A stretch of 7,321 nucleotides of DNA from a virus (taxonomy: Duplodnaviria > Heunggongvirae > Uroviricota > Caudoviricetes): IMG/VR virus record IMGVR_UViG_2645728091_000010; one strand, written 5' to 3'. Every line of letters begins with the position of its first letter. Position 1 is the first letter of the stretch. The position numbers and the translations under genes were made by a program. The notes beneath the pieces are model-generated. The model worked only from the letters and a program-made list of their open reading frames with translations, was not told where the DNA came from and ran no database searches. Positions 2,028 to 2,128 of this stretch are shown here, piece by piece.

Positions 2028-2063
2028 AACGCCCTGTATGTGTTGCGAGCACTGCAGGGCGTT
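2028..2063. promoter_or_regulatory. Inverted repeat IR1: aacgccctg - N18 - cagggcgtt (perfect 9-bp arms)
   Basis: Read directly from the sequence; lies in the divergent region upstream of the leftward small-ORF operon. Confidence 0.5.
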
Positions 2064-2092
2064 GTTACAGAGTAATAAAACATGATAAGGTG

Positions 2093-2128
2093 TGTACCTA
2101 TCAAGAAGCATACTAAGCAATAGGTACA
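2093..2128. promoter_or_regulatory. Inverted repeat IR2: tgtacctat - N18 - ataggtaca (perfect 9-bp arms), overlapping the RBS of the RHH gene
   Basis: Read directly from the sequence. The right arm contains the AGGT Shine-Dalgarno (2122-2125) of the ORF starting at 2132. Confidence 0.5.

Follow-up and report, generated by a model that had tools for sequence, protein, structure and literature searches.

A candidate repressor-plus-antisense-RNA control module between divergent operons of an E. coli phage satellite

The DNA analyzed here (the window, meaning the whole stretch of 7,321 nt) is a helper-embedded PICI inserted in a lambdoid capsid gene, as judged from its Pfam domains and from the annotation of strain RM14723, which carries the same element. 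It contains int and alpA, a dynamic zone and a primase zone, and it is inserted in a lambdoid late gene, a combination that is characteristic of HE-PICIs. In the window, int is adjoined by a truncated Phage_cap_E domain (residues 1-78), and the primase gene is broken up by an IS element. In RM14723 the annotated order is int, alpA, a HicB-like protein, a hypothetical protein, an Icd-like protein, small ORFs, DUF4222 and primase, and this copy of the element sits within the lambdoid major capsid gene. The arrangement seen in RM14723 is that described for HE-PICIs (Tommasini et al., 2023; PMC10111431).

The control region is the 139 bp between the Icd-like gene and a gene for a small ribbon-helix-helix (RHH) protein. 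On its left lies a leftward operon that consists of the Icd-like gene, small ORFs, DUF4222 and primase. The Icd-like gene (1789..1992, - strand; ATG 1992-1990) is the first of these, it matches NCBIfam phage_ICD_like with E=1.7e-19, and it is annotated by RefSeq in the same element. Its Shine-Dalgarno GAGG (1998..2001, - strand) is found 5 nt before the ATG in a stretch that is invariant in alignment A2. A search with the Icd-like gene segment matched 1291 of 5426 complete E. coli genomes, and most of the matches listed cross the first inverted repeat described below (IR1) and stop at ~2059-2069, which is its right edge. At the protein level, a search of genome contigs with the Icd-like protein gave 3 loci, and scans of IMG/VR yielded far more. 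The initial annotation took this stretch for the switch region of the element, and the anatomy of a switch is what we see: a leftward operon, a rightward RHH gene and control sites.

Two inverted repeats lie between the leftward Icd-like operon and the rightward RHH gene, where the initial annotation had placed them. IR1 is formed by AACGCCCTG (2028-2036) and CAGGGCGTT (2055-2063) and IR2 by TGTACCTAT (2093-2101) and ATAGGTACA (2120-2128). Both were described as having perfect 9-bp arms with an 18-nt spacer and as lying 65 bp apart centre to centre, and both descriptions are confirmed (centres at 2045.5 and 2110.5), as is the location within the right arm of IR2 of the RHH gene's AGG (2122-2124), which stands 7 nt upstream of the start codon. 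An exhaustive inverted-repeat search of the window recovered both repeats. For perfect 9-bp inverted repeats whose spacer is at most 40 nt long, the chance expectation is 1.2 per window (1000 dinucleotide shuffles), and when the 139-nt intergenic region was shuffled alone the probability of at least one such repeat was 0.019 and that of at least two was 0.004. The matching 9-N18-9 geometry has no significance and is a coincidence of this element, because homologues do not keep it: their IR1 outer stems range from 7 to 14 bp, their IR2 arms from 11 to 15 bp and their spacers from 11 to 19 nt. IR2 is longer than first described, with 12-bp arms that contain one mismatch (2090-2101 and 2120-2131), and it therefore reaches the RHH start codon. 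IR1 folds into an 11-bp outer stem (2028-2038/2053-2063), a one-base bulge, a 5-bp inner stem (2040-2044/2048-2052) and a 3-nt loop, and this fold (-22.5 kcal/mol on the + strand and -16.0 kcal/mol on the - strand) replaces the simple 9-bp stem with an 18-nt loop. Analysis of the two palindromes suggests that, while both are real, they most likely have different jobs, IR2 as a likely operator pair and IR1 as an RNA hairpin of the + strand.

The RHH gene (2132..2326, + strand) encodes a 64-aa protein, which we propose as the repressor that binds IR2. It matches Pfam HicB with E=5.5e-5. When its profile was compared with PDB, P22 Arc (1b28) was matched with E=6.2e-5, covering Arc residues 2-49 of 53, and Mnt with E=0.18. 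A comparison with Arc by hhalign gave 88.9% probability and E=2.4e-6, and the match to the PHROG 'Arc-like repressor' had E=4.6e-7. On the basis of these profile comparisons, the protein is homologous to the RHH repressors of the Arc/MetJ superfamily. Its positions 19 and 21 align with Arc Q9 and N11, which we take to be base-contacting residues, and its R23, which is invariant in the homologues, aligns with Arc R13. Between the Arc-like RHH protein and the YlcI/YnfO protein of EcCICFT073, hhalign gave E=0.025 with 1.9% probability, and the NCBIfam match was below cut-off; the two proteins are treated as positional analogues only, because homology between them is not established.

IR2 is positioned over two predicted head-on promoters. 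P_L, with the composition TTGACA-17-TAGTAT, is a strong predicted leftward promoter with a predicted start at ~2103. Its -35 TTGACA (2133..2138, - strand; 10/12 matches in the promoter scan, PWM 12.4) is the complement of RHH codons 1-3, and its -10 TAGTAT (2110..2115, - strand; promoter scan) is located in the IR2 spacer. The -35 is kept in all homologues, though the RHH start codon, which overlaps it in every one of them, varies between ATG, TTG and GTG, and TAGNAT-like hexamers are found at the place of the -10. P_R has its -35 TTGTTA at 2062..2067 (+ strand), overlapping the last two bases of IR1, and an extended -10 TGaTAAGGT at 2083..2091 (+ strand; PWM 7.7) that gives a predicted start at ~2098, within the left arm of IR2. 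TTGnnn stands exactly 18 bp before TGnTAAnGT in all RHH-type loci, with a spacer sequence that is not conserved, and TGnTAAnGT itself is kept in 23/23 distinct RHH-type upstream regions. P_R is predicted to be the weaker of the two head-on promoters and to drive the RHH gene together with a variable cargo gene.

The two arms of IR2 can be viewed as two copies of one putative operator. Copy 1 is the left arm GTGTGTACCTAT (2090..2101), which covers +2 to +13 of P_L and approximately -8 to +4 of P_R, and copy 2 is the right arm ATAGGTACATAC (2120..2131), which is located between the -35 and the -10 of P_L, within their 17-bp spacer, and includes the RHH gene's AGG. The centres of the two copies are ~30 bp from each other and flank the -10 box, and this arrangement of repeated symmetric sites over core P_L elements (the spacer and +2 to +13) is kept in all RHH-type loci. 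The inverted repeat is present in all 23 distinct upstream regions of RHH homologues, whose proteins are 58-100% identical, but the arms differ: the types found are GTGTGTACCTAT, ACGTACGTACATAAC, GTATAGACCTA, GTGACCACCTATT and GTGTACACCTATA, and both arms change together across the 23 regions. The arm types track the residues at positions 19/21 of the RHH protein (A/Q, T/Q, M/N, Q/R and P/H, each with a different arm), which is a correlation only. Sister PICIs with YlcI/YnfO-type proteins, including EcCICFT073, have repeated sites of their own that are placed alike with respect to a conserved TTGAC -35. Taken from these comparisons, IR2 very plausibly represents two inverted copies of the operator of the adjacent RHH protein. 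If residues 19/21 do read bases, the A19Q/Q21R substitution is predicted to shift the preference toward the GACCACCTAT arm. A second copy of TGTACCTAT, allowing one mismatch, was not found elsewhere in the window, so that there is no sign of a wider regulon there.

On the + strand, the region up to and including IR1 is predicted to form two consecutive RNA stem-loops. Stem-loop 1 (1992..2027, + strand; RNAfold) has an outer helix 1992-1999/2020-2027 and an inner helix 2001-2005/2013-2017 and carries the anti-Shine-Dalgarno CCUC. Stem-loop 2 is IR1 itself (2028..2063, + strand), a stable, G+C-rich and terminator-like hairpin. The + strand RNA of 1990-2075 folds at -37.6 kcal/mol with z=-5.06, and the - strand leader has z=-2.27; among 29 distinct IR1 hairpins, the + strand folds better in 26, with one tie. 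Covariance model R1 matches 77 places in 76 of the 78 sources searched. The resulting alignment A3 (65 distinct sequences) replaced the MAFFT alignment A1 of IR1, because A1 was inconsistent with the structure. In A3, which was fitted to the + strand structure and favours pairing and G.U on that strand, 93% of cells pair (~40% in slid controls) and 17 of 29 pairs show compensatory changes, values that were reached in none of 500 shuffles. In stem-loop 1, 98% of the cells are paired in one helix and 100% in the other, and 5 pairs are compensatory; in IR1 12 of 16 pairs show compensatory changes. The non-Watson-Crick cells of this + strand-fitted alignment are G.U on the + strand in 284 cases and on the - strand in 17; stem-loop 1 has 119 wobble cells that are valid on the + strand and 3 on the - strand, and IR1 has 165 and 14, respectively. 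The imperfections of IR1 are therefore nearly always G.U on the + strand, as expected for an RNA and not for a DNA palindrome that binds a protein. When the whole window, and 1940-2140 with E up to 10, were compared with Rfam, the matches were at chance level only and included neither C4 nor isrK, so that no RNA family known to Rfam fits.

This structure most likely belongs to an antisense RNA of ~80 nt that spans the Icd-like ribosome-binding site. We place the putative cis-antisense RNA at 1992..2070 on the + strand, with both ends inferred. The structured part (1992-2063) covers the Icd-like Shine-Dalgarno (1998-2001) and reaches the ATG (1990-1992), and pairing between the RNA and its target would be perfect because the RNA is cis-encoded. 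The putative promoter, P_as, is an extended -10 TGgTATGAT (1977..1985, + strand) within codons 3-5 of the Icd-like gene. It is the top-scoring sigma-70-like site of the + strand in the window, with a score of 7.0 that is not above shuffles (mean top score 6.3). In 10 of 11 representative loci, the distance from the end of the top site to IR1 is 41-47 nt and in most cases 42; its hexamers differ between loci (TATGAT, TATGCT, TAGACT, TATATT and TATCAT), and conservation of the hexamer is not independent evidence, because it lies in conserved coding sequence. At the other end, the 8 nt after the IR1 stem contain on average 4.3 T on the + strand and 1.0 on the - strand (65 sequences), with at least four T in 57/65 sequences on the + strand and in 0/65 on the - strand. 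The tail of the window itself, UUGUUACAG, is among the poorest U-tracts of the family. With a terminator pattern scanner, IR1 was not called as a terminator in the window, L003 or L042; the scanner misses it because the stem has a bulge or an internal loop. A rough re-implemented score of the d'Aubenton-Carafa type was above 0 in only 11/65 sequences, and IR1 is termed terminator-like and not a proven terminator, because this classical score is mostly negative.

Other explanations for IR2 can be considered. One is that IR2 is an RNA hairpin in the RHH mRNA that hides the Shine-Dalgarno, which would be translational control with no operator. The segment 2088-2160 can indeed fold, with a 12-bp IR2 stem at -15.7 kcal/mol and z=-2.2, and the AGG of the RHH gene is in the right arm. 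Yet the conserved P_R start at ~2098 falls in the left arm, and the stem could not form in the RHH mRNA because transcription is predicted to start inside that arm. In addition, the mismatches between the arms do not favour one kind: they are G.T in the window and in L031 and A.C in L028 and L043. One site of L043, L044 and L003 has its central dinucleotide inverted, which leaves each site symmetric in itself and breaks the hairpin pairing. In the sister elements, the corresponding positions are taken by direct repeats or by sites that are palindromes in themselves. The arms also co-vary with the presumed base-reading residues of the RHH protein. Masking of the ribosome-binding site, which the initial annotation had offered as its second option, does not hold for IR2, and we regard this explanation as very unlikely. 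It could also be argued that the RHH protein is a mere antitoxin for the 241-aa ORF downstream and that IR2 is only the autoregulatory operator of a toxin–antitoxin pair, without a role in satellite control. The Pfam HicB match, the RefSeq label 'HicB family antitoxin' and the position of the two genes, 24 nt apart on the same strand, are in its favour. However, the ORFs found behind RHH homologues are unrelated and of various lengths (449, 395, 227 or 180 aa), and some elements have no co-directional downstream gene, with alpA or a convergent Bro-N-like ORF coming next. Among the profile searches, which included Pfam, NCBIfam and PHROG, the 241-aa ORF matched neither HicA nor another toxin family. 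The operator is, moreover, on the promoter of the replication operon, and the RHH start codon overlaps the -35 of that promoter in every homologue. The toxin–antitoxin reading is rejected because the genes downstream of RHH vary, and we give it next to no weight.

For IR1 the main issue is whether it acts as DNA or as RNA, and on which strand. The main reading of the initial annotation was that the repeats are operators of two different regulators, for example the RHH protein at IR2; for IR1, the candidates would be the Icd-like protein or some other small protein. In favour of this, each repeat is a perfect palindrome and the control region is a divergent one, PHROGs calls the Icd-like family 'transcriptional repressor', and IR1 abuts the -35 of P_R. 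The IR2 half of this proposal stands as very plausible. The IR1 half does not, given the compensatory changes of its arms and the G.U bias of the + strand: the stems vary by compensatory changes among loci in which the Icd-like protein is 90-100% identical, the same IR1 stem occurs with different repressors and different IR1 stems with the same repressor, and a bias of 165 G.T on the + strand against 14 A.C would have no reason in a protein site. Stem length and loop also differ widely, and in L036 the interior of the hairpin is inverted. That both repeats are DNA operators thus described is, in our judgment, a very improbable reading. Only slightly better is the prospect of a role for IR1 in the leader of the leftward mRNA, on the - strand, where it could stabilise the 5' end as a stem-loop, serve as an attenuator or mediate antitermination. 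A transcript that starts at the predicted P_L start (~2103) includes the complement of IR1, which folds at -16 kcal/mol in the window, but the + strand wobbles become A.C mismatches on the - strand (284 vs 17 cells), the - strand form is the less stable hairpin in 26 of 29 distinct sequences, and a - strand U-tract is missing, with 0/65 sequences having at least four T in the next 8 nt. Another hypothesis is a + strand structure without a dedicated RNA, either an insulating terminator that shields P_R and the RHH gene from stray antisense transcripts or an ssDNA hairpin for replication or packaging. Strand bias and covariation are equally compatible with it, the antisense promoter is weakly predicted, and the homology between elements breaks exactly at IR1. 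Against it, stem-loop 1 directly upstream is also conserved, has + strand wobbles and carries the anti-Shine-Dalgarno, and the -10-like box is kept at a constant 42 nt from IR1 across different N-termini of the gene; this conservation and spacing make the parts look like one transcription unit. We consider the hypothesis unlikely.

An explanation that better fits our data, and which we consider probable, is that the control region contains two unrelated devices, an RHH operator pair on head-on promoters and an antisense RNA that ends at IR1. In this model, P_L would drive the operon of the Icd-like gene, DUF4222 and primase. The RHH protein would occupy operator copy 1, at the starts of P_L and P_R, and copy 2, in the P_L spacer; once bound it would silence the replication operon and keep its own production in check, since the copies lie on both P_L and P_R. 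The + strand RNA would start, probably, at the extended -10 in the first codons of the Icd-like gene and end at IR1, and it would be antisense to the leader, the Shine-Dalgarno and the start of that gene. Pairing of the RNA with the leader may block translation or trigger decay of those leftward transcripts that escape repression. We infer from the sequence that the RHH protein binds and represses, that the antisense promoter is active, that transcripts terminate at IR1 and that translation is affected. AlpA by itself is enough to induce the EcCICFT073 island (PMC6092414), and a repressor model must account for this override by AlpA. A broader and more tentative suggestion, possible but the less likely outcome, is that Gram-negative PICIs, including the prototype EcCICFT073, share a master-repressor module made of an exchangeable small RHH protein (Arc-like or YlcI/YnfO-type), its cognate operators on the promoter of the operon with the Icd-like gene and primase, and a family-wide, hitherto undescribed cis-antisense RNA across the ribosome-binding site of the operon's first gene, and that helper induction via AlpA would override this double lock.

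In the literature that we searched, the only regulator named for Gram-negative PICIs is an activator, AlpA. No later report that assigns them a repressor or an antisense RNA was found there, and a search with a sequence string from the region gave no match. Together, the likely operator pair at IR2 and the antisense-strand hairpin at IR1 point to a repressor-plus-antisense-RNA module in E. coli phage satellites. The region is a testable candidate for the missing negative control, with a defined protein, operator bases that have natural specificity variants and an RNA with mapped stems, and about one in four complete E. coli genomes has a related element. Should the model be true, it would explain how these satellites are kept silent and supply orthogonal repressor–operator pairs; if it is wrong, the region would be an ordinary cluster of promoter, operator and terminator.

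A close layout is found in the immunity I region of P22 (mnt, arc, sar RNA and ant), where small RHH repressors act at operators on a strong promoter and sar is a small RNA, encoded in cis, that is antisense to the stretch around the ribosome-binding site of the gene under control (PMC2629481). The RHH protein described here is a detectable homologue of Arc, and the combination of repressor, operator and putative cis-antisense RNA is similar. Yet P22 is a phage, whereas the present module is in a satellite; P22 controls an antirepressor, whereas the operon here starts with an Icd-like gene and includes primase; and there is a single RHH gene, head-on to the controlled promoter and with its start codon over the -35. 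The Arc operator is one contiguous 21-bp site at which two dimers bind adjacent half-sites, while the copies here are ~30 bp apart and bracket the -10, a different geometry.

The immI regions of P1/P7 (c4 RNA, icd and ant) and the CI RNA of P4 offer another parallel, as an Icd-type gene heads an operon that a small RNA keeps repressed. Processing yields C4 and CI from the target's own strand, and they act on upstream sites, whereas the structure described here is on the opposite strand, and Rfam gave no C4 or isrK match in the window. C4/isrK-type immunity RNAs are reported for some PICIs (Tommasini et al.; PMC10111431). In the Gram-positive PICIs (SaPIs), a master repressor, Stl/Rpr, is divergent from the excision/replication operon and the control sites are intergenic (PMC6092414). 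The proposed repressor gene is likewise divergent and its putative sites likewise intergenic in our element, but the protein is a 64-aa RHH of a different family. We know of no anti-repression by a helper protein for this module. Finally, lambda OOP and the cis-antisense RNAs of plasmids and IS elements are short and structured, end in a stem-loop and lie opposite to the gene that they repress. The candidate RNA has no sequence relationship with these RNAs, and its target would be the 5' leader and ribosome-binding site of the first gene of a satellite replication operon.

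Two inverted repeats lie between the Icd-like gene (1789-1992, minus strand) and the gene of the HicB/RHH-like ribbon-helix-helix protein (RHH, 64 amino acids; 2132-2326, plus strand): IR1, with arms AACGCCCTG (2028-2036) and CAGGGCGTT (2055-2063), and IR2, with arms TGTACCTAT (2093-2101) and ATAGGTACA (2120-2128). Each has an 18-nt spacer and their centres are 65 bp apart, as the initial annotation had described, and both were recovered when perfect 9-bp inverted repeats with spacers of up to 40 nt were searched for exhaustively. Based on 1000 dinucleotide shuffles, 1.2 such repeats are expected per window, and the probability of at least one in the 139-nt intergenic region is 0.019; therefore, the repeats are real and chance is no explanation. 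The 9-N18-9 geometry that they have in common is accidental. With one mismatch the IR2 arms lengthen to 12 bp (2090-2101/2120-2131), and IR1 folds into a long imperfect hairpin (11-bp stem, bulge, 5-bp stem and 3-nt loop; -22.5 kcal/mol). The further proposal, that the palindromes are operators for two regulators, survives for IR2, which would be an RHH operator pair, and falls for IR1, which appears to be an RNA hairpin of a putative antisense transcript.

The loci compared were EcCICFT073 and three other annotated loci, three loci of other species, 37 IMG/VR loci encoding RHH homologues (58-100% identity) and 80 IMG/VR loci with genes for close Icd-like homologues. When a profile of the RHH homologues was compared with all PDB sequences, the best match was P22 Arc (E=6.2e-5, covering almost all of the Arc chain) and Mnt came next; hhalign gave a probability of 88.9% for Arc, and PHROGs names the family 'Arc-like repressor'. 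The protein can be regarded as Arc-like. Arc Q9, N11 and R13, which we take to be its base-contacting positions, align with RHH residues 19, 21 and 23. R23 is invariant, while residues 19 and 21 covary with the IR2 arm sequence: A/Q is found with GTGTGTACCTAT, T/Q with ACGTACGTACATAAC, M/N with GTATAGACCTA, Q/R with GTGACCACCTATT and P/H with GTGTACACCTATA, and both arms change together in all five types. Where an element encodes another small RHH-looking protein, sites of its own, often self-palindromic (GGTAATTACC, TGGTACGTACCA), occupy the same positions, and YlcI/YnfO-type elements, EcCICFT073 included, have their own repeats (GTGGCCCAC, GTGCGCAC, GTCAGCCAC), placed on either side of the -10 of a promoter whose TTGAC -35 is conserved.

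Could IR2 serve as a hairpin instead? At three loci (L003, L043 and L044) the central dinucleotide of one site is flipped, which preserves each site and spoils the hairpin complementarity, and arm mismatches in the homologues are of both wobble types. IR2 is very probably a pair of operator copies to which, we infer, the Arc-like RHH protein binds, and its hairpin-forming potential is a by-product. At EcCICFT073 3280-3400 and in other YlcI/YnfO-type loci, three copies of a 9-13 bp element-specific site (e.g. GTGGCCCAC, GTCAGCCAC) are seen, two around the leftward -10 and the third just past the -10 of the YlcI/YnfO gene's rightward promoter; we read this layout as the IR2 architecture with a different protein family.

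A promoter scan gave one strong site on the minus strand, the leftward promoter P_L, with -35 TTGACA (2138-2133), a 17-bp spacer and -10 TAGTAT (2115-2110); the right arm of IR2 falls within this spacer and the left arm at about +2 to +13. The -35 hexamer and RHH codons 1-3 (ATGTCAAC; ATG TCA AC) are complementary, which makes window positions 2132-2140 dual coding, and because of this complementarity Met-Ser-Thr is invariant across RHH homologues, down to 58% identity, despite a start codon that can be ATG, TTG or GTG. All RHH-type loci share TGnTAAnGT directly left of the IR2 left arm, with TTGnnn exactly 18 bp upstream and a spacer that is not conserved in sequence; from this conservation an extended -10 promoter reading rightwards, P_R, can be defined (in the window at 2062-2067 and 2083-2091, plus strand). 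Its predicted start, near 2098 within the IR2 left arm, is about 5 bp from that predicted for P_L, so that the two promoters face each other.

IR1 behaves differently among the elements, where its stem varies through compensatory substitutions (ACGCCCTG/CAGGGCGT, AAGCCCG/CGGGCTT, AAGCCCGG/CCGGGTTT, GAGGCCCGG/CCGGGCCTC and GGCCATAGCAAGTG/CATTTGTTATGGCC are examples). R1, a covariance model of the plus strand RNA of IR1 and its upstream stem-loop, was built from 26 sequences and matched 77 places in 76 of the 78 sources searched. In the R1-derived alignment of 65 distinct sequences, standard pairs fill 93% of the cells, and 284 non-Watson-Crick cells are G.U on the plus strand against only 17 that would be G.U on the minus strand, values favoured by the fitting of the alignment to the plus strand structure, with outer-stem positions unambiguous by eye; the G.U bias is decisive for the plus strand. 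Both-sided changes occur in 17 of 29 pairs (12 of 16 in IR1), the observed pairing values were reached in none of 500 shuffles, and when partner columns are slid the pairing falls to about 40%. Of 29 distinct sequences, 26 have a plus strand hairpin stabler than the complementary one and one shows a tie; 1990-2075 (plus strand, 86 nt) folds at -37.6 kcal/mol (z=-5.06), the minus strand leader has z=-2.27, and the 8 nt past the IR1 stem hold on average 4.3 T on the plus strand and 1.0 on the minus strand. The Icd-like protein is 90-100% identical among loci yet accompanies at least eight different IR1 stems, and identical stems are found with different repressors; IR1 tracks no protein. Covariation, strand bias and this independence from any protein therefore point to a plus strand RNA-level element, and we consider it highly likely that IR1 is a plus strand RNA structure. 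Its plus strand is antisense to all satellite genes except RHH and its cargo.

Some other observations were made on this region. One locus (L072) has a second R1 match at 367-461 (43.7 bits), a hint of a second or tandem copy of the satellite. In L036-L039 (~1390-1440) the hairpin interior (GTGCTCGCAAC) and the window's (GTTGCGAGCAC) are reverse complements of each other; the interior is therefore inverted, with wobble pairs still valid on the plus strand. By megablast, 1291 of the 5426 complete E. coli genomes match the Icd-like end of the region, most of the matches listed stopping at about 2059-2069 of the window, where IR1 has its right edge; the whole RHH module is matched in only 8.

Another question is which transcript carries IR1. 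Directly upstream of it, a second conserved stem-loop (1992-2027), also with plus strand-specific wobbles, holds the complement of the Icd-like Shine-Dalgarno. The best sigma-70-like plus strand site, TGgTATGAT (1977-1985), lies within Icd-like codons 3-5, and in 10 of the 11 representative loci 41-47 nt (mostly 42) separate the end of the top-scoring site from IR1, which follows it, although neither the hexamers (TATGAT, TATGCT, TAGACT, TATATT, TATCAT) nor the N-terminal codons are constant. The site scores are not significant alone and the site falls within a coding region, so an antisense promoter is something we infer. The pattern scanner found no terminator at IR1; a rough classical terminator score was positive in 11 of the 65 sequences, the window's tail UUGUUACAG being among the weakest of the family, and the case for IR1 as a terminator is no more than moderate. 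The most economical reading would be a two-stem-loop RNA of ~80 nt (~1992-2070) that is complementary to the Icd-like mRNA leader and RBS; it matched no Rfam family, and no paper describing it was found in the literature searched. We lean slightly towards IR1 ending a dedicated antisense regulatory RNA.

Downstream of RHH homologues the ORFs are unrelated (241, 449, 395, 227 or 180 amino acids), and some elements have no co-directional gene. Since these ORFs are unrelated or absent, RHH as a dedicated antitoxin was rejected. The window's 241 amino acid ORF (2351-3076, plus strand), with a G+C of 32% against 43-53% for the satellite backbone and no match in Pfam, NCBIfam, PADLOC or PHROGs, has the look of a replaceable cargo gene served by P_R, and the slot seems to be a hot spot for cargo, perhaps of the anti-phage kind. 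Between its stop codon (3076) and that of the convergent alpA (3117) there is a perfect 12-bp inverted repeat (3080-3108; AATTAGGTAGGT, 5-nt loop, ACCTACCTAATT) with AT-rich flanks, which resembles a terminator working in both directions; AlpA-driven read-through heading for the replication operon would have to get past it.

The window is a PICI-type phage satellite. Its minus strand genes, taken from the right end leftwards, are a tyrosine integrase (3352-4638), alpA (3117-3350), the Icd-like gene, three small ORFs, a DUF4222 gene (881-1180) and a D5_N primase (18-884), with RHH and the 241 amino acid ORF between alpA and the Icd-like gene. PHROGs lists the Icd-like protein as 'transcriptional repressor' (phrog_6196, E=2.7e-45), and its NCBI name is cell-division inhibitor. 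Right of the integrase there is a lambda-type major capsid gene truncated to Phage_cap_E residues 1-78, together with genes for gpD, an S49 protease and the portal protein, and the annotation of E. coli RM14723 shows the same gene arrangement. The satellite is integrated in the lambdoid major capsid gene, with only those 78 residues left beside the integrase (4640-5022). Helper-embedded PICIs integrate in lambdoid late genes, cap_E included (Tommasini, Mageeney and Williams 2023; PMC10111431); the arrangement here matches, and the insertion site corresponds to their cap_E integration group. At the left end, window 1-92 is the end of an IS4-like ISEc13 inserted in the primase gene (junction ~92/93), to which a perfect 13-bp inverted repeat (58-70/76-88) belongs, and homology to the intact primases of L001-L003 starts at ~93. 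This copy is probably replication-defective.

The closest known system is the immunity I region of P22, in which the RHH repressors Mnt and Arc and the antisense sar RNA control ant (PMC2629481). The window's RHH protein is an Arc homologue, but its module is in a satellite, the controlled operon is Icd-like plus primase, the promoters face each other with the RHH start codon overlapping the P_L -35, the operator copies are 30 bp apart, and the RNA is without detectable homology to known families. In P1 immI and P4 CI, too, an immunity RNA is coupled to an Icd-type operon or to a satellite. Their RNAs are co-directional with their targets, and the window has no C4 or isrK match. In function, the module is similar to the Stl region known from Gram-positive PICIs. 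In the Gram-negative ones a global repressor was called unclear and AlpA was shown as an activator (Fillol-Salom et al. 2018), and the later literature searched does not mention a repressor. The parts are ordinary in kind; their assembly is one not described before for this large satellite family, and as a proposed repressor plus antisense RNA it is directly testable.
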